Counted from the first letter of the stretch, positions 1,462 through 19,400 are shown. The stretch: 54,738 nucleotides of DNA from a virus (IMGVR_UViG_3300043372_000548:1-54738), one strand, 5' to 3'. The notes: a model not told the origin generated them from the letters alone. Made by a program: numbers and translations.

Positions 1462-1488
1462 ATTTAGCACTTAGGCCTGCTGCTAAAT
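1462..1488. promoter_or_regulatory. Palindromic site ATTTAGCA-N11-TGCTAAAT (copy 1 of 3)
   Basis: Same arms and spacing recur at 41359..41385 and 41474..41500. Confidence 0.6.
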
Positions 1489-4400
1489 CATGGCCTCAGC
1501 AAAAGCTGGGACCGTGATTTAATCTTCTGATACTCGCTCATCGCCCTGTCCAATTCGGCACGGGCCGGACCGGTCAGGCTGGCGCGAAAGCGTTGCTGGT
1601 TTTCTTTCCCACTGATGATCATAAGCGGGTTTTTGTAAAAGAGCAGACGCTGCACGTCCTGACCGTTTTGAATAGGTGCCCCAAATTCCATCAACTTCTT
1701 TTTCAGGTTAGCGATGGCTGTTAGGTTAGGAGTGTCCTGGGCTAATTGCGAAAAGAGAGCACTGCGCGCGCGGCTGGTCGGTGTCGTGCTACCAAAGTCC
1801 ATGCCTTCCGTTGTTGGTAGCTTGTTGGCTTTACGCCAGTCGTCAGCGATCCGGTAGAGGTCGGGCACAGCATTCCGCACATCCAGTCCTACCACGGCAC
1901 GGGCCACCGCTTGCGTAGGACTGCGGGTTTCTAGCGTTTTACCCGTGCTACGGGTGCCAGCATTCAGAAGCGTTTGGAAACCGGTGCCACCGGGCACTAA
2001 AGGAGGTAGCACGGTTTTAGCGGCATTGTCTAGGCGAGCGGCAATCTTCTCGCCGGCAGTCATGTTATTCTCGACAAACGTGCGATTCCCAAAAGCGTCT
2101 TTCCCTGTCATCTGCGCATAGAGCAGGCTACCAATAGGCCCAGCGGCCACGAGGCTGCGGAGTGTCTTCTGCCACCAATCTTCGCCATCTCCGCCTTCGA
2201 CACGGTTACCCAAGAAATCGACGAATGGATGCACGGCGGAAATGTCAAACTGCTGGATCTGTCCCTGGTCACTGCGCACCGGCAGCAGCATGGAAAAAAG
2301 AGGCATCCCCTCCAGCGGCGTCGGTCCAAGCAGCTTCCCAGCTTTCCCGCGCATGTCCTTCTTCAGTTCTTCCAGGTCGTCGTCATCCAGTCCCAACGCT
2401 AAGGCGCTCAGGAAAGTGACCAGCGACGGCACCGAGAGGCCGGCAGCCAGCGCAATTGGGCGCTCCTTCAGTGCATTGCCAAAGATGCGGATGGATTCAC
2501 GGTAGAAGCCCAAGAACGGCATCGCCGTGCGTCCCAGCAGTTTTAGCGTGCCGGAGGTGCCACCATCGAAATACGGGAACCACTGGCGGACGTGGGCGGC
2601 GGATTTTTCAGGAGTCAATCCCATGCTTTGAGCCTTCAGGTAAGCAGCCAGCTTGAAGACCTCATCTTCCGCCTGGTAGGCATTCGCAATGTGGTTGTAG
2701 CTTTTGCTCAATGGATTCTTTGCCCATTCAGGGACCAGTTTACCGAGAGCCTTCCCGATGCCGAGTAGAGCGTCCGGTTTGCCGTCGTCTTGGATCGTGG
2801 CAGGGTCGGGTAGGATCTGTCGCAGAGTTTGGCGCAATTCAGCACTGACAAAGTCGGCGCCGAGCACACCGTTTTCATAGGCCTCTTGTAGAGTGCGTCC
2901 GCCATCGCGCAGCGCGCTCAGAGCCTGGCGGTAATAGGTTAGATTGCCAGGGTTCCAGACGGACGCACCAGCTAGCTGACTGAAAAAGATATTGCCGAGC
3001 ACGTTACGCACATGCGTCCCAGGATTCAGCACCGTCTTGCCAGTTTTCCACCAACCCATGAGGGTATCATAAAGCCGAAGAGCCGTGTTCGGTGACTCAA
3101 TCATTTCCAAGAGTTGTCCAGCGATGTCATCCTGCACAAATTTTCCTGCCAGCCTACCAAAGCGGGCATTGTCTGGGATCTCCGTAAAGTCTGCTACCTG
3201 CACGTCTGAAATCCATTCAGGTTTGCTGGCCACAAAGTTGAAGAACGCCGCCGTGGAGTTATCATGCACCATCTGAGCCATGTAGCGGGAAATTGAGTAA
3301 ACAGGGTCCATGATCAGGCCGGCATCCTCTTTTTCCTGCACACTCAGCGGGGCCATTTTCTGGAAACGGTAACGTTGAGCGCGCGTCAGCTCCTTGATGC
3401 GTCCGCGCAATTCTTCGGGCAGTTTGGCCGGTGCGCGCAGATCGGCCAGGGTCAGTTTCTTATTCTGACCACCGCGCATTTGCAGCGTATCCAGCACGTT
3501 CTTAAGGATGAAATCCTCATAGAAAGCGTCTCGCTGCCCCTGATTGCGGAAGCGCCATTGATTGCCCTGCCAGTTTACAAGGCGAGGCTCCCCGCCGGCG
3601 TCCTTGTTTTCTCGGTCGCTAATGTGCCAGGCCGTCGTGCGCTGCGCGGTAATGTCGCGCAGTCCCAGGCGGAAGCGTTTAGTCAGGCTCTTTTCCCGCT
3701 GCACATCCTCCTTGTAGTAGTGCGGCATGTAGCCTTCGCGCAGGTTTTCAAACGTCTCCAAAGACATGCGGCCTTGCTTTACTGCTTCAGTGCCTTGCTC
3801 GATGAGCATGTCCCGTAGCCGTTGCGCGAGTGCTTGCAGTTCTGCTGGCAGACCCGAAAGCGGAGCTTCCCCCGTCATGGCCAGATACATTTTCTTCCGC
3901 CAAACCGGATTTGCGGAAAACTCAGCGGGGTAAACCAAGTCGGAGAACTTCGGATTTCCCGACAGAGCCCGAACAAGGTCCATAGCCTTCTGGCTACCTA
4001 TGGCCGTCTTAATTTCCATCTCACGCTTAGCCGCGGCCACTTCACGCGGCAGAATGCTATCCGGCATAAATTGACCTTTGACCGCTTTCAGTGCAGCCAG
4101 AAAGGGCTTGGCATCCTCCGCCCCTTGCCATTTAGCAACGGTTTCGGATACACCGACCTTGTCATCAAGGTGACGCGTAAGAGCAGCCATTTTGGCCGAG
4201 ACATGGCGGTCCAAATGATTCCAACCTAGCGCGGCGAGCGGGGATGGAGTAGTAGTGCCTTTAGCCAGTCCCATGCGCCGGCGTTCCGTTGCCCACTCTT
4301 CAAACGCGGCCACGCTAGGAAACTCGGCAATGCTACCGGCTCCTTTCCAGCCTGGCGTATAGTTTTTCAGGTATTCCGAACGAGCAGCCACCGCATCACG

Positions 4401-7400
4401 GATGTCCACACCGAGCACGACTTTATGCTCATCAAATTGGCCGGCTGTGTCCATCTGATTGACCACAAACACCGGCCCATTGTAATCCGCCGGCGTGCCG
4501 GGCTGGATGTAAATATCGATGTGGTCGCCATCTTTGCCCTGCGTGCCTCGGATGTAACCGTAATGGTCATGCAGTCGAATGCTCCATTTTGTCCCATCTG
4601 GATCGGTGCCAGAGCGCACGCTGCCAGCGGGATTCTCGATGGAAATGTCCAGTGGTCCCAGATTAAAACGACCGACTTTATAATTGCCGGCTTTTTTCTG
4701 CGCTGCAGACGGCTCAGGTGTTGAGTTAAGCGGGGATGTGGCTGCCGTTTGAGCAGCGGCATCGAGGGAGTTAGTGGTCACAACACGTTTCTTGCCCGCA
4801 AACAGCCTTGCACTTCGATCTCCTAGCGATTGAGCTTCTTGAGTGGCCTGTTGCACGAGAGCCCCAAGTCCTTTGACGTTGCGCAGAGTGTCCTGGGTAA
4901 TGATGCCAATGACGGGATCATTGATGCGACCGGCTCCTTGATTATCGCCCACAAGGTTGTCGGCGTGCAGGTCCAGAACCAACCATGGGCGCCCCTTGAC
5001 CACGGTGATGTAGGCTCGTGGAGCGTTGTAAGTTATCAGGTTGGTAGGAATCTCCATGATCCCAGAAGCACGACGCGCGGCGGCGTTGCCTGAATTGTCA
5101 ATGAAAGCGTCTTGGCTGCCGATGCCAGGATTCGGACTCAGCGGTTGCTTCAGGTAGATGTGTCCTTGCGGACCAATCGCGGCAATTTCGGTCGGCGTGC
5201 CGCCAAAGTCAGACATGACGGCAAGACGTACGCCAATGGCGCGGGGATTCTTGGCAGGCTGGAAAGACCAGTCGAGCCGGTTCAGACTGCTGTGTCCCAC
5301 ATGTGGCCAGATACCGCCGGCAGGGTTGCCACGACCGTCTTGCAGACGCTTGTAAATTACGCCGTTTTCACGATCCAGATAAACGATGGATTCCACTCCG
5401 TCCGTGTTGGCGTTTAAAGCCTGGATGTCAGCTTCCTGGGCTGCCGTGATCACCGGCACGTCAAAAGCCGCACCGAGGCGCTTGGCTAAATCCGGTCCTG
5501 GGGTCCAGTCGAAGTCTTTGCGCGCAGCGGCACTTCCCTGCCGGAGGGGTCCGTCTTCAGCGACGCGGGCGAAATGGACATCGCGTATCGCGGATCCTTG
5601 TTCAGCGGTAACTCGTGATCCTCGAATCGACGATTTTCCGGCAGTCCGGCTGTCCAGTTGATTGGCTTCGGTGTCATCCCCCATCATCGGCGCAGTTTGG
5701 CCTTTTGCAAGGCTGGAGACCGGTTGCTCCATCAGGCCCATCTCAACAAAGCTCATGTTTCTATCCGTGAAAGGTATTACAGCATCCACAAAGCGCAGAC
5801 CTGAAGATTTACCCATCTCCTTGAGATGTCTTACAAGGCGGTTTTGCTCGTCGCTTATACCGTTATCTTGGCCATTGTTTTGCGGAAAACCTACCAGGAA
5901 GCCATAAGCGCCTTCTCTGGCCGCGCCAAAGATAATACGCTGTGCCACCTCGGCGTTTGTGCTTGATGCAGGAATGCGTTCAACGGCCCGGACAGCCAAT
6001 CGTGTATCCACAAAAAGCACATGCAAGTGGTCAGGGTCAGCGGTGCGCAGTGTTGCGAGATACGGTATTACTGCGAGAGGGTTATTTCCATAAAAAGTCG
6101 CATTGGATCGGCCCGTCGGCAGCACTTCCCAGTCAGCTAGATTTCCCATTTCTGGCTGCGCGGGAGTAGGTAAGATTGGCAGCGTAGGTTTAGTCTTGCC
6201 GGACGGTCCTTGGCCGTTAATAAAGCCGCTCTCACGGTAACTGTAATATCTTTCACCGTTAGTAACAACATGGTCGATTAACGGAAGTCCATAAATAAGG
6301 CCCATTTCACGAAACGTGCGGGTGATTCTATTGTCAGCGTCGCTGGGGGTTGGGTCTCCACTTGGGTGGTTGTGAGCAATGAGCCATCCCGCTAGTTTAG
6401 TTTTCGGGTTGGCTAACTTTGCACTAGCCAAAACCCCAGCAATGCTTTTTGGGTCTGCAATAGTTTCGTTCAAGCTACCCACATGAACGATTTGACTGTG
6501 AACGACCTGGTTAGAGTCGTCCACGACAGCAATTTTAAGAGTCTCAAAATAAGGAGTGCGAACAGCAAGATTAAATGCCGCAAAATCGGCGGCGGTTTTA
6601 ATTACAGCACCTCGTATATCAAAGCTCGGTATCTGCCGGCTTGTAAATTCCTGCAAGATAGTAGAGAGAGTATCTTTCTCTTGAAACGCCTCTCTAATTG
6701 CGCCGACGTTTTGGGAAACTAACCCTCTCCATTCCCGCTCAGCACGTTCTCGCAGTTTGTCGAGTCGTCCACTGTCCCGAACATTTCCTGCGGCAGAGGG
6801 TAACTGATAGGCTTGAGTGGAGGCATTGGCTGCGGCGCGGATGGCGCGCTTGGCGGCTGGTTGCTTATTAGCGGGGACGTTGACATTGGGTAAATTAAGG
6901 TAGCCTTGAATGTAGGAATCACTCAGAGGGTCTTTAAACCCATTTTTTGGCAACGCTCTTTTTCCTGCGCTGTAAGCTTGTGATTGTCCACTTGTCGCGT
7001 CAGTGCGTGCTCTGGCAAGCTCAAAGAGTCGTTTGGCTTGATCGGCACTGCCGTCAATGGCACGTTCAGCTTTGTTAAACCATTGCTTGTAGGAGTCATT
7101 GAAAAGACCATACATCACAGGTTGGACTTCTTCAAGCGGCTTCGTAAGTAGCATAGAGACCTTCTGACTAAGGCGCTCGATGTCACGCTCGCTAGTCTGG
7201 CGCAGGTCGGACGCTGCAAGCGTCGCCACACCAGCCACAGGAATACCCTCTTTCTCAAGCATGGCACGCATTGCTAGCCAACTTTCGCCAGTATTGTGAA
7301 TATCTTCTACCAGCCAAATAGGGCGGCCTGTAACTTGGCGTAGATCATTCAGATCTGCATCGGGCTGGTATTCAACAGGGTCAGACATCTTAGCCCAAAA

Positions 7401-10400
7401 AGTGGTCTTAGCCTTGGCTTCACGTTGGGCAGTCGGAACCGCATAATTACCGCTGGCAATAGTAGCACCGGACTGAGCCAGACGCTGAGCCAGGCGGAAC
7501 GGCAGCACATTCTTCCCGCTGGTAGATGGCATCGGCACCAGCACAGCGTTTTTGGGAATGCTGCTAAAAGCCTCGGGCCGGTAGAACTGTTCAATGATGT
7601 TGTCGGCTTGCTCACTATTAAATCCGCCGGCAGTCCATGCGTTTTTGGCGGCTTGCAATTCAGCAACGTTTTTGCTGGAGGCCAGTAAGGGTGTAGTTTG
7701 GCCTTTGGCAAGGGATGGGCTCGCAGATGATTCAGCCGATTCGGTGGCGGTTTCTGGCGGTGAAGACTTTTCCCGCAGACGGGCATCCACTTCCTGAGAT
7801 TCGAGTTCGAGAGCAGCTAGTTTTTCCGCTTCTGGAAACGTGCCAATCGCGGCCAGTGTTTCCCGTAGTTTTTCAGCTTTGGCGGCGTCATCGGCCAAAT
7901 TTTGGCGGGTGCGCTGCACGGTGTCTTGCAAATCAGCAGGCAGACGGCGGAGATTATGAATCAGGCTACCAGCGCCACTGAATTTAATCAGATCACGGCC
8001 TTTATCATCCAGAACGGCCCCAGCAGTGCTGCTGTTTGGCATGGTGATGTAGATGTTTAGCGGCACTTCCTGCCCGTTGATGGTCAGGCTAGCAGGTGAC
8101 TGCGTCATGCCACGGCGCTCTAGGCGCTTGGAGGTATCAAGCAGCCAGTTGTCTAGCTTGGCGGTCACGGATCCCTCTTTGCCTGCGGTGTCGATTACCA
8201 GCCCTCCAAACTCATAGACGGCCTTATCTGAAATATCCGTATCTTCTTTGACTCCTTCCGGTTTGGGGGCTGTGCGGGTCCACAGCTTGGCGTATTTATC
8301 GGCTTCTTCCTGGGCGGCTGCAATGGCGCTATCCCCGTAGCGGAGATTGGTTTCTAGTCGTGATAGACGGCTGCGTTTGCCAGCCAGTTCATTCGTAAAG
8401 GCTTCACTTTGCAGGCGTAAATCTTTGATTTCTTTTTCGAGTTCGATGCGGCGAATGAAGTCAGGATCTCCGAGGGTTCGGGCGGCCATTTCGGCCATAT
8501 TGACCGCTACGGGGTCGGTTGGATCATCAAACGTATCCTGCATTTCCTCTCCCATGAGAAGCTGGGTGATGAAACGCTGCTTACGGGCAAGTGTACCGTA
8601 AATGGCGCTGTCCATGCTGCCTTCGGTGCCGTAGTTGACGACTTCTACCTCTTCATTCCAAGCGGGTTTTCCTTCCACCTTCTCGGCGTGCAGGTTTCCT
8701 TGCCGGATAATACGGCCATTTCGCTGCTCCATCATCGCCGGCGTAAAATCACGCGGCGGCATGAGGTGATGAACCGCTTTTAGACGGGTCTGAATGTTGA
8801 CACCAACGCCCAAAAGCTCGGTGCTACCCATGATGATACGAATCTCGCCGGCATCGACTTTTTCAAAAAGCGCGGCCTTAGCCGTGTCCGTCATGCCAGA
8901 CTTCATGAGGTGAATCTCTTTCTCAGGCACGCCAGCCGCCACGAGCTTATTTTTCACATCGACATAAAGATCAAACTCACCATCCCCACCGTATTCTGGG
9001 AAGGGATGCCCAGTGAAAGGCATCAGATACTCCATGCTAAAGGGGTTCCGCAAATCACTAAAAATGATCTGGGTGGTTTTGTTCTTTGCACCGGCCTTGT
9101 AGATCTCGACGACACGACCCACGGCAGTATTCACCTTACTGCCAGGATCATCGGGCAGGTTCGGAGAGAGCAAGCGCGGATCTAGGGCGGCGGCGATGCC
9201 TGCTGCCATGGTCTGAATCGGCACGGCAGTAAACTCTTCTTTCTCGTCAGGTGCCGCGTTTTTCCAAAGCTCATTTACGTTGCGGGTCCAAGCATTGAAG
9301 CGGTCAATGCTTTCCGTCGCGGGCACAATGACCATCTCAGGCTCTCCCCCTTTGATCTTGGGCACATCCAGCCCTAGACTTTCATTTCCGAATGCCACAT
9401 CAAACATGGTGCGGACCATGGTAATCAAAGCACTACCATTCTGGAACTTGGCAAAACGGGTTTCCATTTTTGGGGTTCCACCCCAGGCCATTTCTGCTTC
9501 GGTCACGGTCTGCCCGTAGCTGGTGGCAAAGTCGTCAAAGTTATGGATGCCAAAATCTTCCAGTACATCAGGAGCCATGAACTGCATCATGATGTAGGCT
9601 TCTGCCATGCTATTCTTGATCGGCGTGCCCGTGGCGAGGAAGATGTTCTTTCCACCGGTGCGACTCTGCACGTCACGGCATTTCAACATGAAATTGATAG
9701 CGCGCTGGCTATTCCCACTGGCTGGCACGCCTTTCACGCGGCCCATGCGGGTAATGATGGGCAGGCTCTTGTAATTGTGAGCCTCATCCATGATGAGCGC
9801 GTCAATACCAAGATCTTCCCACATGACGGCGGTGTCTTGGCGAGCTTTAAGCTGGTCCAGCATTCCTTGACGGCGTTCTTTGAGGCGTTTCACCATGCCT
9901 TCGAGGTCGCGCACCTTGGCCTTATCCTTTGTGGAGTTCACAATAGCCACAAGTTCCTCAATCTGACTGTCCATATAAGCTTTGACGGCGCTCTCTTTGT
10001 TCGAAATTAGGTCAAACTGGGAATGGGGAAGGATGACGGCATCCCAGTCACCCGTAGCGATCTTAGCCACCAGCTTTCGCCGATTCTGGGCTTGGAAGTC
10101 AGACTTGGAAGGCACCAGCACCTTAGCGCCAGGGTAGGCTTTGAGGTAGGACTTGGCAAACTGGCCAAGCGTGGCGTTTTGCACCACGATCATAGGTTTC
10201 TTAGCCAGTCCAAGCCGGCGCATTTCCTGTGCCAGGATAATCTGGTTAAAAGTTTTTCCGCTACCGACTCCATGCGCCATCATGCCTCGCCGAGTGGTCA
10301 GGAAACGTGCGATCACACCCCGCCGATGCGGCTTGGTGTAAACGTAGTTGGTATTCAATCCAGGGAACTTCAGGTAAGCGCCCGTGTGTTTTGGCGTGAC

Positions 10401-13400
10401 GTACGAGTTATTGGACTCGTTAAAAGCGTTCTCGGTGGCTTCCCAAACGGGGACCGATTGGCCTTCAATCTCGACCATGTTGTCACTTGTCTTGACAAAG
10501 TCGATAAATGCTCGGCGCATCTTATCCAAAGCTGTCTTGGCGGCTGCGGTGTCCTTTGCATTAAAGGTCCGGTTGTCACCACTGCCGTCATAGACTAGCG
10601 GCTCTGTCATATCGAGCGCGTGTTTAAACAAGGCAGCGGCTTTCTTCCGTTCGGAACCGTGATCTTCCGTCTTGTAGAGGCCAGTGCCGGAAATGATCCA
10701 GGAGTTACCAGCGGGAATGTATTCAACGGTGTCACTTCCCTGAAGCACTTCTTTGATGAAGGCATCATAGACTGGCGCGGGAATCCAGCGTGCCCCCAGC
10801 ACGGGAGAAATTCGGGCAATCTCTTTCCGCTCAGGCTGGGCAGCGGTGAGAGCTTCTACGTTTTTAGTGAATCGTGGATCATCTTTGGCAGCTTCTTGAG
10901 CCGTCTCTAGTTTTTGGCGGACGTTCCCAGAAAGGTATTCTTCCCCTTGCTCCAAAAGGCTGGTATCAGGGTTGCGGAAGATGTCAGGGCGCAGCAAAGC
11001 CTCCGCCTCAAAACGCTCTACAGTGCTGCCGAGCAGGCTGGCAGCATAAGCCGAGTCAATCGTTCCTCGCCATGCCAAGGCCAATTCTAAAGCTTCATCG
11101 GTGGTCTGTGCGGAGGTAGGCTCAACGATAGGACGACCAATGCGTTTGCTGAAGATTTCCGCTTTTTGGTAGGTATAAGACTTCTTGCCAGTCTTGGAAT
11201 CGACGGCGGTTATTTCTGTCTCCAGCGCGGCAGTCAGCGGATAACTTGGGTCACTGGTCAGGTGCTTATGGCTATTGGCAAAACGGCGTGAAATCGGTTT
11301 ATGCCGCATAACGTGGTTGTCATAGAGCACGTTTAGGTTACGGCGCAGGCGGTCCAGTCCCGTTTCCTCAAAGGAATTGCTAGTTTCGGCCTGCACAAGT
11401 TCTTCCGCAGCGTCTGCGACTTTGCGCCATGACCGCCACGTCTTCACCATCTCGGCATTGGTTGACCACTCCGCTTCTTCCATGCTGCCGTCTGGCTGCA
11501 CTTCGTAGAGCTTGCCATTCTGTTCCTTAAACGAAAAAGGTTTATCATCACGATCTGCCAGCACGGTGGCTTTAGCCTCTGCCGTGTTCTGCCGCCCCAT
11601 CACATTCTGGGGTAAGCTGGGAATGAGGGCATCGAGGGCGCCAGTGACATCCAAGGTATCAGGAGCCACAAGCGCGTAACCGCCGGCTCGATACATCGAC
11701 GACGCGAGCGTATGTGTGCCAAGCGCGTTCTGAGGATGGTTTACAAAATATTCGTTCACCATGATCGGCGCGGAGACGTCGATGGCTTTCTTGTCGCCTT
11801 TAAAGTATTCTTTACCCACGATGTCACCTGTGCGGACCGCTTCACGGCGAAGTTCATCGACTGTCTGGTCTTTCCCCTGCACTAAGGTAATGGTTTGTCG
11901 GCCTACTTCTGTAAGATTGCGCCATGCTTCGCCTTGAAAAGGCGTCCCGTCAGGCTTGCGCAAGATGATAATGTCCGTCGTTACTTCGGTCCCTGCATTT
12001 TCTTTAAAGGCATTGTTTGGCAGGCGAAAAGCCGCCACAAGATCCCCTTTGGAAGCAATGAAATCCCGTTGTTTGACGTTGTTCTGCATCGTCGATTCCG
12101 ACGTGATAAAAGCCACCAAGCCACCAGGCTTTACTTTATCCAACGCATGGGCAAAGAAAAAGTTGTGCAGGTTCAAACTAGGAAAACCTTTTTTTGATGG
12201 GCCGGACTCATGGAAAGGAACGTTGGAAATAACCAGATCCAGAGAGCCATTCGGGATACGGGCACGTTCAAAGCCGAGGCCTGTCACTGTCCGCGATTCA
12301 TTGGCAGAGTTTTCATTAACGACTGCCTCTGGGTAAAGCTTAGACAGCAAGCGGGCGCTGAGGTCATCGAGCTCTACGGTCTGCCACTGCGTTTGATCCG
12401 CCAGTGCCGCCGGTTGCACACCGAGGTAATGGCCATTCCCCGCGCTGGATTCAAGAGCTCGCCCACCTTTAAATCCAAGCCTATCTACCATTTTCCACAT
12501 GGCGCGGATAAACGGCACGGCGGTGTAGTGAGCATTAAGAGTGCTGGCGCTGGCGCTAGAAAACTCATCTGCAGTCATGCTTTCTTTCAACAGCTTATGC
12601 AGCGGACGGTGATTCTTTTCCCAGCTTTTCAGCCAATCTGGCATGTATTGGCGGCGATACTCGGGAACGCCGTCCCAATATTCTGAAATGTCTTTTTCGT
12701 ATTTGTTATTAAAGGCCTCTTTGAAAGCGCCCCAGCCGGTATAAGAAGCCAGTGTTTTCTTTTCTTCAGGCGTGGCGTTTCGGCGCTCATCTTCCAGCAC
12801 TTTTAGCAAGCGGATAGCCTCAATGTTGGCGGTGACCTTGGCTCTTTCTGTGGCCGGTGCTAAATTCTCAACGTTGTCAGGAACTTCAAAGTTACGTTCG
12901 GGACTTCCTACATCTGGGCGTAGGATTTTGGTGGCATTAGGATTTCCAGCATCTCCAGGCAATCTGGGCATATCTGCGTTAGTGCGGCCTTTAATGTCAT
13001 TTCCTGCTGAGTCGTCAGTTCTAGGTCCGCGAGTTGTTGTTCCACCATCGGCATTAGTTCCGCTGCTTCCGCTGCTTCCTGTGAATCCGGCTCCGTCTCC
13101 AAAGAGAGATCCTTCCCCTCGGGAAGTTGAGACCATGCCTGTTTGTCCAAATAGGTCACCAAGGCCTCCGGTTGTTTCAGCAGACGAGGCAGGGCGTCCA
13201 GTCCGAGCAGGGCGTGGAGCACGTTGGGAAGTTGGTCGGGGTCGCGCATCGGTGAAATCTCCAAAAAGGTCAAGGGTTTGAGCTTGCTGAACCTTCGCCT
13301 CATTCTGGGCTGGGGTCAATAATGTCTCAAGGCCGAGGCCGGCGTTGAAAGAAAAAAGGTCGGGAGTGTTATCGGTTGCGGTGCGGCCTTTGGTTAAAGA

Positions 13401-16400
13401 TGGCGTTTGGCTTTCGCGGTAGCCGTCATTAGCAAACTCATCGAAAGCGGTGACTATCTCAGAAACATCAGCGGCATCGGGGGCACTGTCAGCAAGATCG
13501 GCGGGTGTCGTATCGCGCGGCGTGCGGCGTGCAAGGTAAAAATGGGCGATGTCTTGCAGTGAATAGCCTTCTGCTGCACCAATGGCGAGCGGTGTATTCA
13601 TGCTGCCTACGGGGAAAGGCGAAGGCTTACCGGTGGCTTGATTGAGCTTTCCAGTAGCAGCAAGTGCAGCAAACTCTTGCACGGTCATGTCATTGACCTG
13701 CGCGAGCATTTGAGGCCAGTCTGGCGCTACTTCTTCGCCGGCGGCGGAACGCTGAACTTCCCGTAAGGGAGTTTGTCTAGGGCCGTTTGTATCTCTTTCT
13801 GCTGCGCTATTTCGGCGGCTGTTATTGGTGGAGATTTCTTCATTGGAACGACTGTCTAAGATACCCCAAAACTGGGGATTTACAATGGAAAACTGCGGGC
13901 CTGGAGCCGTTTTTTCAACAATGGCGTGAGGTTTTGGCGGCGTGTTATCGTACACATCCGCCAGATCCACGAGCGGAATGTAAGCCTTCACCGCGGCGTT
14001 GAAGGAGCGATGAGCCCCCATCAAAACATCGACCGGCACCCAGCGGCCTGAATTTTGCCCACGCAACACGGCGCGGGTAATGGCTTCTCGGGGGTCAATA
14101 CTGACGCCAATGAGATGAATCTTTAAACCCGAGGCTTTCCAGCGCTTGAATAACACCTTGGTTTTTTCTGCATTGGCTAAAGTGCCGTCGAAGACAATAT
14201 TGTAACGGGCGGGTTTCCCCGCAGGAATGGCGCGATCCATAAGCAGCGTGGTAATCTGGCTGCTTTCCTCATGCACCGTGGCAGCGGCTCGGCCATCGCC
14301 GGCTAGCTTTAGCTCATGATACTCAGGAATGAGTTCTTTGATGTCGTCCGCATTGATCTCGACCGTGTTGTCGGTGTTGACTGTGCCTCGCTTTTTAAGG
14401 ATGCCTAAAATGGTGCTTTTACCAGCGCCACCGCCACCGCCCATGGCGTAGAGAGTGGGCTGCGTGCCAGCAGGCACAGGCGTAGCACGCTGCATAAAAT
14501 ACTGCACCACGGCGCGCTGAAAAGCAGCCCGTGGAATGGTTCGATCAGCGGGAAGGATTCCCGTCACCACCAAAGGATGATCGGTACGCAAGGTGGCACT
14601 GGTTTTGGTTTCTGTCGGCTTCAGGAGGTCATCATCCGCCGGCAGCGTCTTCGGCATGTTGGGGAAACCGTATTCATTCCACCCATGCGGCCAATCGGCC
14701 CCAAACTGCTTTAACAAACGCGGATCAGTCGCTTTACTGCCTGAATATAAGGCCGGCGGCTCAGGAGTAGGTTGTGGCTGTGCTTGGGAGGCGACTTGAT
14801 TGTCGAGTTGGTCAATGCGGTTTTGGCTACGCGGTGTCTCAATGATGAGATCAATCGGGTAAACACTGCCGTCTGTGGCGGTAATGAAGTTTTTAGGCAG
14901 CGCATCAGAAACGACAGTGCTGCCGTCCCACCACGCACCTTCATAAGCGCGCTGGAAGCCTTTCCGGCGCATATAGCCGTCAATCTCTTCCAATGTAGAT
15001 GGCCGGCCTCTCTGCCAGCGCTGCGAAGTGACAAGTCGGGGACCTGATTCACCAGGGAACTGAATCCAGCCTTCGATGGCGATGTCATCCCCAAACATTT
15101 CGTTTTGGCGGGCCATCTGCTCTAGATAACCACCCAGAGAACCGCGAGCACCAAATTCGCCGGCGTTGGTGAGCTTAATAGCCGTGTCTCCGCGTGGGTC
15201 TCGGTGACGGTAAACAGTGTGTTCTTGCCCTTTTAAAAGGTCTTCTTCAGGTATCTGCCGTACGTGTTGACCCCATGCGCCAAGGTCTAGCTTTGGGAGC
15301 GCTTCCAAGCCTCTCTGGCTTGCTGAATAAATACCGGCTCCTCTGCTACCACTTCCGCTCCCACCTTCACTCCTAGTGCGCGCATTGCCGCTGTCTGAGC
15401 TTTCTCGTCCTCCGGTGACTGGTAAGCCCTGGAGTTGAGCTCGCGCGATTCGCGGGTTCCGGAACGAATTAGAAGTTTGGATTCCATAACGAGCTAATGT
15501 AGCATCAATCGTTAAAGATTCAACGGGTTTGATCCATTCTGGAACAACTCTTTTACTGCCTGAGAAGAGGCTTAACTGCTCAGAACCAAGCGCCTGTCCT
15601 GTGGTCTGGGTTTCCAAGCGCAGATCTTCCGCAGGTTTGGAAATGCGGGTGGTGGCGTCATCAAAAAGGAAAGTCTGACCGAGTGACATCTCGGCAGTTT
15701 CCAGCGCTTTGGATTGGCCTGGGGTAAGAGTCTGCTTAGCCGACAGGGTGCGGTAAAGTTTCAGTGCGGTGGCGGGTGGCAGTGTGGGGGTTTTAGTCCC
15801 AGAAGCTAGCCTTGGCTGCGCAGTCTCTTGGCTAGAAGTCTGGCCTGTAGCCAGGGCAAACAATTCTTCCCGTGTCGGGCGCGGTTCGTCACCAAACAAA
15901 CTCTGCTGCTTGGGGTCGCCAAGACTAAGCACTGCGCCGTTGTAGCGGGCGAAGGACTCGATCATGTTTTTGGCAGAGCGGGCGTTTTCGTCCAAAAATC
16001 GCAGGATGCTAGCTTGGATGCTATTGGGCGGAGTGTAGCCGGCTTCGTTGACCAGTCCTGGCTCCAAGTAAGTGGACACCGGTTTCCCTGCTTTGCGTGC
16101 TTTGGCAAAGTAATAGGACGCCCATGCCACATCAGCAGAAATATCCATATCAAACAGATCACCCTCATTCATACGGGCCTTCATGTCTGCAAGGGCGGGA
16201 GCAATACTGGAGAGGACGCGGCTCAGATTTCTATTTTCCTCTTCAACAGATCCCACCATAGTGTCGATCATCGCACGGGCCTGCTTATCTTTGCCATAAG
16301 CATAGGCCAGCAAAGCACGTTGGATGCGCTCCATACCATCGGCCCCAAGTCCTCCGTCATCGTCGAAAAATCGTTCTTTTTGGGAATCGTCGTGGACAAG

Positions 16401-19400
16401 GTTTCGCTCAAACCAGCGGAAAAAGTTCATGTTAGAACTACCAGGAAGGCTTCCGTCCTCAGTAGCGTTAATCAGTGCAAGTCCAGGCGATAAAGCGGCA
16501 GCGTCTTGATAAGCTTGATCGACCGGCCCCATCTCAGCGTTGCCCATCTCGGCCAATTTACGCAGGTTTACATCCTCATCGATGATGTAGATAAGCTTGG
16601 GTTTTTGAATCTTTTGCAGAGCTTCGTTGGAGATACCAAAGCTGGCAGCCTGGGCTCGCAGATCCTTTTCATACTGAAGGATATTTGGAAAGTCCGACGG
16701 ATTCGCATAAGCGTGATCGATTGCAACGTCACGATGGTTGCCAATGATGACATGGTGGTTACGTGATACTTTAGCGGCACCATCTCGGATGCCGCCGGCG
16801 GTGCTAGAAAGCCTGGAGAAATCCGCGTTGGTGGCGATTTGCTTCCGCTTCTGGGCTGAAATGGCGACACCGTCAGTCTTGCGAGGCTGAAAAACCTGCG
16901 GAAAATCTGTTCGGCTCTGGCCCGCAAAATTCATGCTGGCAATGGTCGCCGGACTGTTGGCTTCAACCACGGCGGGCCGCAGGCGGACCTTTTGTCCATT
17001 CGGAGCGGTGACGGTAATGGATGTGCCAAGGGCCGCGCCTGGGAAGATCACCTCCAAGGGCCGCATGTCCGTAGGTGGTGCGTCCACTGACGGGGCGTTA
17101 AGATCAGCACTTTCGTCGTTGGGCGATGTCTTGCCCCCTTTAGACTTTACTGATGCCACCGGCGTCTTTTTCGCCATAGGCTTGAGCGCCGGTAGCGTCG
17201 CCAGTCGAGAAGGATCACCTTTGGACCGTGCCTGCATTTCAAGCACCAGATTGCCCACTTCCTCGATCATGGTTTCCAGATCGGCCTGAACTTCAGGGCT
17301 GGCTTTGCTTACCAAATCTCTCAGAGCGTTTCCGAGATCGTTGAGCATGTCCATAAGCCACTGGGCTAAAGACTTATCTTGCGCGGCAGCCTCAGACACT
17401 TGACCGGCAAACTTCCGGTCTTGAATCATCATGCGCAGGAACTCGTTAAATAACTGCCACTGCTGCCCAGCGCGCATATCACCAGGCATTTGGCTTGGTT
17501 GCGTCTTGTTTAGAATATCGATTGCGTGATAGCTCTCCCAGACTTTCTGGCGGAGTTCCGGTGTCAACGAATTCCAACGTTTCACCAATTCGCCCATGCC
17601 ATACTTGCCTGGGTTTTGCTTGGCTAAGGTCAGCACCGCAGCATGAATGGTTTCCTCGACCATTGTGGCCGTAATACCTGCTTCTGCGTCGGTAAGGTTA
17701 CTGAGTTCTTTCAGCACGTTGGAAAGGTCCAAGGCCAGCACGGTTTGACCGTCGATCACGTTAACAGCCAAAGCGGAGCCACCTAGCAGGCTTTTAGCAC
17801 TGTCTCCTAGTGCCAATGTTCCAAATAGGGCATGATTCTCTGCTAAAGCACGTTCAAGGATGTTTAATGTTTTGCGCGCCTGTGGCCGCTTGCTTGCAGG
17901 TAACGAGGTTAATACCTGGAGACGTGCCCGACTCCATGCCGAGTTACGGCGAAGGTCAGCTGGGCGCGAAGGTGTTTCTGCCACGACATCGGTATCCGCT
18001 ACAGGCTCACCGGCGGCATTTACTTTTCCTTTTGCTAGACTGCCACCACGGGCAGCCGTCTCAGCCCGTGATAACCAGGGGAGAAAGCTGAGCTTATACT
18101 GCTTGTTTAAATCGCTGTTGTTTTCAGATGACTGGGCCACAAACTCAGCCGCCAAGGCAGCCGCTTCTTCCTCGGTGTAAGAACCGTCTTTGACGATCTT
18201 GGCCGCAAGTTGTTCCGCGCGCTCCTGCTGAGGAAAGCTAAGTTTAGGGGCCGTTGTCGATGGCTGCGCTTTTTTATAAACTGTTTCCTGGTTAGAAGTA
18301 GCGGGCGCGGCAGCGGCAGGCGGAGCCACCACCGCGCCCTGGGTCGTATCCTCCCCACCACTCGCAGGGGAAGCGGCACCTTGGGCCGATGATCCACGGG
18401 CAGACTGTTCTTCACTAGACGCGGGAGCCTGGCTAGGGGAAGGGTCTGCAACAGGGGAAACAGGCGCGGTTTTAGCGGCGGACTGGCTAGCCAAACGCTG
18501 GCTAAAGTCCGCAGGCACACGCAGAGGGTTGTCTTGGGCGCGGGAAGTGCTCAGACTGCCAGAAAGGCCAAGTTCACGCAGAATCTTGGGGTAGTCTTTG
18601 GTTATGGCTTGCTCGACATAATTTTCACCAATCACACCCTGCTTGTTGACCAAATACTGCGCCACTTGCGCAGCCTCAGCAGGGGCCAAACCAAGGTCTT
18701 GGAAATGGGTTGTGAAGTCGCGAATGCGCTGGCCCTCTGGGGTAGACGTATCCACCCCAGATGTGGCGCTGTCTGATGCAGCCACTGGTTTGGATTGTGC
18801 GCGTGCAGTTATTGGCGCTTCAGATTGGGTGGCCGTCGGTATTTTAACGCCATGATTGGCTGGAATAGCTGCCGCTACTTCGGGCAGATTTTGTGCCAGG
18901 CTAGCACGATAAGCCGGGCTAATCGTAGCCACACCGGCGCTATCTACTTCCAGCACCTCAGGACCAGTGTAACCTTTTAGCCGTTCGATCTGCCCTTCGG
19001 GCAAAGTGATGCCTTTGCTATTTCGTCCTGTCCAGCCGGCAGCATTGAGTTGGGTTTCTTCCAAGTCCTCAACACTACCACCCTGGGCCACCGCTAAGGC
19101 CACGCTAGCGCGCTCCTGCATACCAGGAATGTCCGCAGGATTTAAATCCTCGCGATTACTTAGCTGATCAATAGACGACCAAGCAGCAGCAGCCACTTCA
19201 GGCCGCAGAGCAGGGTCCGCAGGCTCCACAGGTGCCACTTGCGCGACGTTGGGTTGTGTCGCGTCACGAGGCGCGCGGGAGCTTTCGCGGATGGCCTGAA
19301 TGCCTTCTCCTGCCCCACCAAGTGCAAAGATAGCTGCGGAGAGTTCAGGCAGGCTTTCTACAAATTGAGCAAGCGCTTGCGGAACCGATTCGCCACTGGC

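Follow-up and report, generated by a model that had tools for sequence, protein, structure and literature searches.

Can the giant gene of a polyvalent phage protein carry further, smaller genes in a second reading frame, and what would such genes do there? The question is raised by a Verrucomicrobial prophage known from an IMG/VR provirus record of 54,738 bases (IMGVR_UViG_3300043372_000548:1-54738); the whole of this stretch was analysed and is referred to below as the window. The late (structural) operon of the prophage lies on the minus strand, contains terminase, major head and portal-like genes, and is closed by a gene for a protein of 6,920 amino acids (aa), termed here the host gene. 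Pfam matches in the protein comprise ddrB-ParB (aa 1751-1887), Zeta_toxin (2590-2756), Helicase_C (about 4445-4518), RadC (5228-5342) and InPase (5850-5987); Kinase-PolyVal, SNF2 and ResIII match with scores under the Pfam cut-offs. With many conflict-related enzymatic domains in a phage context, the product is, on its domain content, a polyvalent protein. A first-pass annotation had claimed that four same-strand open reading frames (ORFs) in the +1 frame of this gene, found only in the linkers between its domains, are small genes with promoters of their own that may protect the producing cell. Translation confirmed all four ORFs, which are listed below together with the host gene.

1488..22250, minus strand: host gene, by ORF call and translation; 6,920-aa polyvalent protein, last gene of the late operon
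15287..15487, minus strand, +1 frame: 66-aa ORF, in a low-complexity stretch N-terminal to the first kinase module
13727..13843, minus strand, +1 frame: 38-aa ORF, beginning just past the end of the zeta-toxin domain
12908..13249, minus strand, +1 frame: ORF113, 113 aa, in a low-complexity stretch just upstream of the methyltransferase (MTase)-SNF2 module
5486..5677, minus strand, +1 frame: ORF63, 63 aa, over the N-terminus of the second kinase-like module

ORF113 as listed begins at the second ATG (13249) of a 131-aa ORF (12908..13303). The description "only in linkers" is loose: among 30 giant homologues in the protein collection (4,408-7,441 aa), 19-24 align across the region of the 131-aa ORF and 11-16 across that of ORF63. 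Judged by comparison with relatives, the giant gene carries at least one conserved nested small gene, and probably four, and the view that all four ORFs are under selection as small genes, as opposed to being frame noise, is supported. The best explanation, to which we assign a probability of roughly 0.6, is that four small genes would occupy the +1 frame at module junctions, each as a partner of its module.

Selection in the +1 frame

The nearest DNA relatives of the host gene lie in a Verrucomicrobia metagenome-assembled genome (MAG; locus L085), a Brevifollis MAG (L086) and an IMG/VR contig (L122). In a systematic test, the BLOSUM score of a +1 peptide of the window against the +1 frame of a homologue was compared with a null in which synonymous codons of the homologue were permuted. 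Among 60 such comparisons ORF113 reached z scores of 16.3, 12.8 and 11.6, ORF63 9.0 (L122) and 2.4 (L085), and the 38-aa ORF 5.2 (L085); the remaining 54 ranged from -1.5 to 2.4. A second score compared the codon usage of a coding model with that of the +1 background, conditioned on the host protein. On this score ORF113 has a z of 5.9, with ORF63 at 3.9, the 38-aa ORF at 3.2 and the 66-aa ORF at 2.9; a pair of neighbouring ORFs covering host aa 5047-5177 gave 2.5 and 3.6, and the other 34 at most 1.6. Windows of 50 codons with coding-like +1 usage (z of at least 3) were found in five regions, four of which are the claimed ORFs, and none was found in the +2 frame. The two neighbouring ORFs, at 6719-7111 (minus strand), are adjacent, have 62 aa (ATG) and 67 aa (GTG) and contain windows up to z 3.9. 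In L086 the +1 frame ends at the same stop (after SG[NP]GEG), and host-synonymous change there is 0.52 against 0.74-0.91 nearby; the +1 peptide is rich in proline and serine and may be a shadow of GCC-coded alanines.

A nested homologue of ORF113 was found in 6/7 related giant-gene loci (L085, L086 and L122; weakly L002 and L003; not L004). The +1 translation of L085 and L086 yields a clearly related peptide with the same initial methionine, in a part of the gene where the host frame is 32-39% identical, and in L122 the nested copy sits in a host frame that is open over all 20,318 nucleotides (nt). In all six pairs among the window, L085, L086 and L122, identity in the ORF frame amounts to 0.42-0.57, compared with 0.15-0.20±0.03 expected from host conservation (z 9.3-11.5), and differences are most frequent at ORF codon position 3. 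When sequences were redrawn so as to preserve the ORF113 peptide, the host frame stayed open in 0.4-7%. Host position 3 changes less than position 1 in the 100-codon window over ORF113 only (1/101 against L085, 1/24 against L086). An OLGenie-style count over ORF113 gave a dNN/dNS of 0.38-0.65, with an upper confidence limit below 1 in 4/6 pairs, and the host-synonymous distance (dSN) is 0.30-0.50, whereas over other +1 ORFs it exceeds 1.2 or is saturated. For the host frame dNN/dSN is 1.2-1.7; the G/R/S/T-rich host sequence, which had been taken for the shadow of a real protein in the other frame, is indeed the less constrained frame over ORF113. Constraint changes frame at the ATG: upstream of it the host sequence LLTPAQ...LDLFG is kept, and from the methionine onward the +1 frame. 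The stop codon TAG lies inside the host V-G codons of VGSPxRNF in three of the four loci.

Beyond these loci, nine proteins of 112-119 aa, predicted on short contigs, are close database relatives of ORF113 (60-76% identity). When 1.84 billion cluster representatives were searched with a profile, 22 matches came back, two of them repeat artefacts and 20 of them proteins of 91-191 aa, most of which align from their first residues (MR[DN]PxQLPSVL...). With a hidden Markov model (HMM) of the family, weak Met-started +1 ORFs of 103 and 106 aa were recovered at the same place in the more distant L002 (E 0.001) and L003 (E 0.0036), ending just ahead of the MTase module. In L004 (9300-9800), of the giant-gene relatives the most distant, the +1 frame before this module is open for about 140 codons and faintly ORF113-like ('...PMVMESLLPML...FLTPEQSRKVELAL'), the family HMM being not significant. 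In P0065, a database protein of 191 aa, one part resembles ORF113 and another, in the same frame, ORF63 (WTDGLPEPRFFADSELPGNKDK), hence the two appear adjacent or fused elsewhere. That ORF113 is a frame-shifted piece of the main protein was rejected, since none of the 30 giant homologues has its peptide in the main frame. Most members of the family keep two cysteines, while the host proteins (0-1 Cys codons in more than 6,000) almost lack this residue; the count of Cys codons in the giant genes of the window, L085, L086 and L122 is 1, 1, 1 and 0, in about 2,700-6,900 codons.

The ORF113 peptide is strongly acidic, by inspection, and predicted to be helical; AlphaFold2 (AF2) on 12 sequences modelled six helices (pLDDT 73.4, pTM 0.59). 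An ESM Atlas search with ORF113 gave no usable match, and a complex prediction with host residues 3115-3900 scored 0.00, which is no answer. The domain upstream of ORF113 varies, being a zeta toxin in the window and L085 and ART-PolyVal in L086, L002 and, weakly, L122, and the MTase-SNF2 module downstream is constant. The proposed link of ORF113 with MTase-SNF2 is borne out by this constancy; ORF113 as a zeta antitoxin was rejected because its upstream neighbour varies. Terminator-like hairpins number 21 in 5400-15600, compared with 13.6±4.1 in shuffles, and one lies inside ORF113 (minus strand, 13126-13112). From the comparisons described above, ORF113 is very likely a real gene.

Start and stop of ORF63 are identical in L122, and nowhere else in the gene is the excess of synonymous-site conservation against that locus as strong as over its tract (z 5.0). 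In addition to the similarity to L122, the +1 peptide matches that of locus L152 with z 14.0. Against L122, dNN is 0.14, dNS 0.33 and dSN 0.28, with a dNN/dNS of 0.43 (0.18-0.95), a substitution pattern that does not fit a region coding in one frame only. The core INWTAGLP...NKDKRYAMSISPASL is common to ORF63 and six database proteins, in which host third positions, as inferred, are no more variable than second positions (0.15 vs 0.15). At L152 (1466-1672, genome G505) a 68-aa homologue stands intact beside an unrelated SRAP-like gene, and the 'host' frame is broken there, leaving a 54-aa stump with a stop. ORF63 is probably a real gene as well.

A Met-started nested homologue of the 38-aa ORF, 51 aa long, occurs at the same place in L085. 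In L144 a 65-aa homologue (2225-2422; MLNKPLPSIIKLDL...SLPYG...) overlaps the end of the zeta-bearing ORF (2235) by 11 nt, and the former host frame carries six stops across it. Similarity in the +1 frame reaches z 4.1-5.2 with L085 and 6.8 with L144. The polyvalent gene of L144 (G582:C13, 1-3705) is split; after the small ORF, a 371-aa ORF with no Pfam match follows from 2590. The balance of these comparisons leans, by a modest amount, towards a real gene.

For the 66-aa ORF, no homologue of its stretch was found in five giant-gene loci. The kinase module matches 179/401 genomes of the order, and a Met-started +1 ORF of 63-85 aa lies upstream of the kinase core in 16/18 kinase loci. Loci L127 and L134, in which too little of the region is covered, were excluded, as was L140 from the family tests, having no Met-started ORF; L136, L141 and L142 were tested, showed no significant similarity and were left out of the family-wide counts. 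The family-wide counts for the kinase ORFs cover within-group pairs only and exclude L131-L133, a pair of more than 95% identity. The 66-aa peptide of the window is similar beyond the null to nested ORFs of two Verrucomicrobial kinase genes, L125 (z 4.9-7.6) and L130 (z 6.9-7.3), weakly similar to L135 (z 2.1-2.6), and not to the other 12 loci. By way of these similarities it belongs to a 10-locus family whose shared motif is [IV][RK]x[GS]TLx[ET]R[LW]; a second family (L137-L139) brings the total to 13 loci. In close pairs of the 66-aa family, identity of the ORF exceeds that of the host frame (0.88 vs 0.79, 0.91 vs 0.84 and 0.79 vs 0.60), differences by ORF codon position are 4/9/15 (L131-L132), 1/5/11 and 12/9/23, compared with a flat 14/11/12 upstream of the methionine, and changes that are host-nonsynonymous and ORF-synonymous outnumber the reverse by 15 to 8, 10 to 4 and 23 to 6. 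A switch between the serine codons TCC and AGC preserves IRSGT in the ORF frame and alters the host residue from F to Q.

The second family, in cellular genomes, consists of well conserved 68-aa +1 ORFs (MVTGPDALRKVRSNQRKLSYLEFL...) at the kinase N-terminus, with TTGACA-16/17-[GC]ACACT 35-36 nt ahead of the ATG. The kinase frame has stops further upstream in L137 and L138, hence the small ORF may be a separate upstream gene overlapping the kinase start. As regards the window, the 66-aa ORF is more likely than not a real gene, with somewhat better odds than the 38-aa ORF, and the evidence from sequence for both copies is moderate, not strong.

In all four families the per-site rate of host-nonsynonymous, ORF-synonymous changes exceeds that of the converse (0.78 vs 0.46, 0.38 vs 0.26, 0.61 vs 0.41 and 0.47 vs 0.30), and ORF codon position 3 is the most variable (54/59/89, summed, in the 38-aa family; 47/43/64, 757/657/890 and 294/268/394 in the others). 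ORF conservation and synonymous-site constraint across homologues, which the first-pass annotation had named as a check of its claim, exceed chance in the relatives. Open frames with conserved start and stop, and signs of purifying selection in the alternative frame, as expected of overprinted genes, were found, more weakly for the 66-aa and 38-aa copies of the window.

Putative start signals of the small ORFs

Promoter-like TTG motifs had been claimed for each of the four ORFs. All are present, with spacers of 16, 16, 17 and 16 nt; a further set of signals was located upstream of ORF113.

15496..15523, minus strand: promoter-like TTGAAT-16-TACATT, ending 8 nt before the ATG of the 66-aa ORF
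13858..13885, minus strand: promoter-like TTGTAA-16-TATCTT, ending 14 nt before the ATG of the 38-aa ORF
13302..13330, minus strand: TTGAGA-17-CAGAAT, the motif claimed upstream of ORF113
13259..13319, minus strand: start signals of ORF113, namely TTGACC (13319-13314), a 17-nt spacer, GAAGGT (13296-13291) and GGAG (13262-13259)
5683..5710, minus strand: promoter-like TTGCAA-16-GATGAT, ending 5 nt before the ATG of ORF63

The claim did not hold for the promoter of ORF113: TTGAGA-17-CAGAAT is not conserved, and instead TTGAC(C/G) at -70 and GGAG 8-9 nt ahead of the ATG are kept in all four loci (window, L085, L086 and L122), the -10-like hexamer being weak. Another TTGACC (13268-13273, minus strand) lies 19-24 nt before the same ATG, within the host L-D-L codons of the conserved LDLFG. 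The box of ORF63 has a counterpart, TTGCAA-17-TATGGT, at the same place in L122 and none in L152. That of the 38-aa ORF corresponds to TTGTAA-16-TATCAT in L085 and TTGAAG-16-CATACT in L144, at -39 and -42; as its TTG lies within conserved host codons (S-I-V-N), host constraint may contribute to this conservation. In the kinase-ORF families TTGnnn-16/17-nAnnnT is found at -33 to -36 in 11/13 loci, in differing host-codon contexts.

Taken over all homologous ORFs, the loose motif TTGnnn-N16-18-nAnnnT occurs within 90 nt upstream of 22/25, compared with 8.5% of random positions in the same loci, and is missing upstream of the ORFs in L152, L128 and L129. The upstream motif is thus conserved in position, in line with the original suggestion. 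In 18/25 ORFs it starts at -33 to -42, which places the end of the -10-like hexamer 5-14 nt ahead of the ATG; the boxes lie in different host-codon contexts (TTGAAT, TTGTAA, TTGCAA, TTGCGC, TTGCGA, TTGCAC, TTGACA). Words resembling a Shine-Dalgarno sequence were found in 7/25 (background 17%), four of which belong to the ORF113 clade with its box at -70. A hexamer ending this close to the ATG and no Shine-Dalgarno word suggest a leaderless or near-leaderless mRNA; three of the four window ORFs conform to this arrangement, as a pattern of sequence. The conserved position of the box fits separate transcription, and we put the chance that the small ORFs have promoters of their own at about even.

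Proposed role of the small genes and competing explanations

Proteins of the polyvalent type are thought to be packaged and injected. The explanation that we prefer builds on open frames, frame-specific selection, conserved starts and stops, module linkage and motif position, as established by sequence comparison. The giant gene encodes the polyvalent protein of the Verrucomicrobial prophage, and four small genes would be written in the +1 frame over its low-complexity stretches: the 66-aa gene with kinase 1, the 38-aa gene after the zeta-toxin domain, ORF113 before MTase-SNF2 and ORF63 at kinase 2. Each travels with its own module as neighbouring modules change, and would be transcribed and translated from its own start signals, either a box 5-14 nt before the ATG (leaderless) or, for ORF113, a box further upstream together with GGAG. 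The partner could be free-standing, as in L144 and L152, or nested, and the host frame, reading across it, would give the G/S/T/R-rich junctions. From their size, their linkage and the nature of the modules, the small genes may be inhibitors or immunity proteins that silence a harmful module in the producer cell, a role that we propose tentatively. The positions next to toxin genes belong here, with the 38-aa family right after the zeta domain and the 66-aa family at the kinase N-terminus, each adjoining or overlapping the gene. A bolder version, in which the linkers would be no mere spacers and every harmful module (kinase, zeta toxin, MTase-helicase) comes with an out-of-frame antidote nested at its edge, a private promoter and often a leaderless mRNA, so that polyvalent genes would be strings of toxin-immunity cassettes, is doubtful. 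Equally doubtful are two extensions of that version, that module and antidote would move jointly between giant phage proteins and free-standing cellular genes, and that the same nesting would be common in Verrucomicrobial kinase genes.

A number of observations weigh against the preferred explanation. In the host gene alone, +1 ORFs of at least 35 aa number 40, spread across domains and linkers alike, compared with 42.7±3.7 in 1,000 synonymous-codon shuffles, and the longest has 145 aa, compared with 160±29. Scans of the window alone likewise show no enrichment of promoter motifs (3 sites against 5.9±2.7 expected for a strict sigma-70 motif, 27 against 30.9±4.6 for the loose one), several of the -10-like hexamers are poor matches, a number of the TTG triplets coincide with host codons that are themselves conserved, and the 22/25 do not represent 25 independent events because homologous ORFs are related by descent. 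In ORF63, the differences from L122 are spread evenly over codon positions (11, 13, 13), start positions differ among the database relatives, and no +1 constraint was detected against L085 (+1 identity 0.20, z 1.4-2.4), whose domain at this position is of a different subfamily; the AF2 model is poor and mostly coil (pLDDT 68, pTM 0.28). The 38-aa and 66-aa ORFs of the window have low identity to their relatives, 0.32-0.36 in the ORF frame and 0.17-0.33 in the host frame, and are among the most divergent members of their families. A fifth region, at host aa 5101-5192, shows a like codon-usage signal with only a Pro/Ser-rich +1 peptide. Ascertainment bias enters because relatives were partly found by similarity in the +1 frame, and the permutation nulls assume independent codons and locally uniform usage, both of which low-complexity sequence may break. 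The ORF113 model has no Foldseek match in PDB or BFVD at E≤0.001, and none of the small ORFs matches an antitoxin or other family of Pfam, PHROGs, PADLOC or NCBIfam at E≤0.01. In known epsilon/zeta pairs the antitoxin gene lies upstream of the toxin gene; the order here is the opposite, the zeta-linked ORF lying downstream. The sequencing runs that contain the region are DNA metagenomes, with no RNA run among those listed.

Chance was the first reading that we adopted, from the ORF-length statistics, and it was dropped once relatives were compared. A hydrophilic stretch poor in L, I, V and M opens automatically, as a +1 stop arises only where A or G follows a host NTA or NTG codon; in shuffles the interval of the 66-aa ORF was free of stops in 33%, that of the 38-aa ORF in 92%, of ORF113 in 44% and of ORF63 in 29%. 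A narrower form of this reading would leave ORF113, and perhaps ORF63, as real genes and treat the other two as open by chance, their +1 similarity being a shadow of host motifs or composition. The first two of these percentages, the low identities and the fifth region, with its comparable z and no convincing peptide, would be in keeping with it, as would the short motifs of its own that the host frame carries at these nucleotides (PLRE, [ND]P[RG]xAL). It is improbable, since the 66-aa and 38-aa ORFs reach z 4.1-7.6 where 54 other comparisons stay at or below 2.4, a free-standing 38-aa homologue persists where the host frame is interrupted by stops, ORF-synonymous changes dominate in the 66-aa family, IRSGT survives a serine codon switch, and the promoter-like box holds its position in the kinase-ORF loci. 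A further reading is that there is no second gene at all and that the signal comes from constraint on the nucleotides themselves (RNA structure, DNA sites, recombination tracts) or from the codon bias of low-complexity sequence, as the short tract of high identity between ORF63 and L122 with its even differences might suggest, and as happens where GCC-coded, Ala-rich host sequence gives a Pro-rich +1 'conservation' at host aa 5124-5177. The signatures are specific to a frame, however: ORF codon position 3 varies most in four families, methionine starts are conserved and constraint switches frames at the ATG, 20 divergent clusters of small proteins share length and N-terminus, +1 ORFs remain intact at loci with a broken frame alongside, and the ORF113 model is confident and helical. 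We regard this reading as highly implausible.

Another possibility is that former cassettes of enzyme and partner were fused and that the +1 ORFs of the window are unexpressed relics, with function retained by free-standing relatives only. The split arrangement of L144 (zeta ORF, stop, small ORF, next gene), the lone small ORF of L152 and the divergence of the 66-aa and 38-aa peptides would suit such a history. A relic, however, would quickly lose its frame where hydrophobic codons occur, whereas ORF113 is nested in an open host frame in 6/6 loci, with purifying selection continuing among nested copies that are 42-57% identical, and all four ORFs of the window keep ATG, stop and upstream motif; fossil frames are therefore quite improbable. 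If the genes are real, their role may yet differ from inhibition. Small Dar proteins help DarB into the P1 head. Assembly, packaging, processing or folding helpers of the polyvalent protein, or independent anti-defence effectors or regulators, are the next option after the inhibitor role and, on balance, unlikely. The host gene has head genes as neighbours in its late operon, DarB-like antirestriction protein is the annotation given to homologous MTase-helicases, ORF113 is acidic, and the family libraries contain nothing similar among known antitoxins, all of which would accord with such a role; processing of DdrB before packaging into the phage head is described in the available text of PMC5512222. 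Against it stand the nesting of the 66-aa family in kinase genes across many cellular genomes, where no phage head context is obvious, and linkage to single enzyme modules, not to the whole protein.

Prophage context and comparison with known systems

The prophage also carries an integrase gene, at 1-1197 of the window. Several searches for related DNA yielded little: megablast of the window DNA against GenBank phages gave no match, tblastn against phages gave distant MTase matches only (at most 40% identity), a first scan of viral contigs for relatives returned nothing, and in a scan of metagenome contigs relatives reached at most 48% identity among the matches listed. The MTase profile matched 23/401 genomes in a sample of the phylum, with G001 alone close, and 5/401 in a sample of the order; the ORF113 profile matched 2/145 genomes of the family. 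Contigs of four DNA runs over 5000-16000 are short and nearly identical, with 73 variants in total.

If the preferred explanation is true, giant polyvalent genes hide module-linked small proteins, and their low-complexity junctions should be reread; it would also account for the tolerance of a phage or lysogen towards the kinases, zeta toxins and DNA-modifying enzymes that it produces ahead of packaging. Single-sequence ORF statistics would have dismissed the finding, and the frame-specific comparison with relatives reversed this verdict. With at least 29 distinct relatives and no fold or family match, the ORF113 family is a well-defined target.

Among known systems, the type II toxin-antitoxin (TA) pairs epsilon/zeta (PezAT) and HipBA also have a small ORF beside or overlapping a zeta-toxin or kinase gene, as in the overlap in L144. 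Unlike in those pairs, the small ORF here follows the zeta domain and is nested in the coding sequence of the toxin gene itself, neutralisation being a proposal, and neither the family libraries nor, for the ORF113 model, Foldseek showed any likeness to epsilon, PezA, HipB or another antitoxin family. TA transcripts in M. tuberculosis are predominantly leaderless, according to the accessible part of PMC8485053. Bacterial genes with leaderless transcripts, in which the -10 box sits only a few bases ahead of the start codon, are described in the excerpted texts of PMC3160421, PMC6028130 and PMC4007540, and the small ORFs resemble them in that nAnnnT ends 5-14 nt before the ATG and no Shine-Dalgarno word is found in 18/25 homologous ORFs. 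They differ in that the boxes lie inside a translated gene and are known here from sequence; among the matches listed, the literature on leaderless mRNAs had none for Verrucomicrobia.

Polyvalent proteins of phages and conjugative elements were defined by Iyer, Burroughs, Anand, de Souza and Aravind (2017, PMC5512222). As far as the available text of that paper goes, the host protein is like those proteins and P1 DarB in combining ddrB-ParB, kinase, zeta, N6-MTase with SNF2 helicase, RadC-JAB and InPase at the end of a late operon. In the same text the junctions are parts of one polypeptide and the word 'overlap' does not occur, whereas here at least one junction very likely encodes a second, better conserved protein. 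A full-text literature search gave no link of polyvalent proteins with overlapping, nested or overprinted genes. Nested genes are invisible in annotation because gene finders forbid long same-strand overlaps, and the database record of the window omits ORF113.

Embedded +1-frame genes of phages include lambda Rz1 inside Rz and the nested genes of phiX174. Overprinting in viruses has been reviewed (PMC8227390, PMC6195259; available in part). Like such genes, each small gene of the window would lie wholly inside a larger gene on the same strand, whose older frame is compositionally odd and weakly constrained. Unlike them, several nested genes would share one gene of 20.8 kb, each at a junction, linked to a module and preceded by a conserved box of its own.

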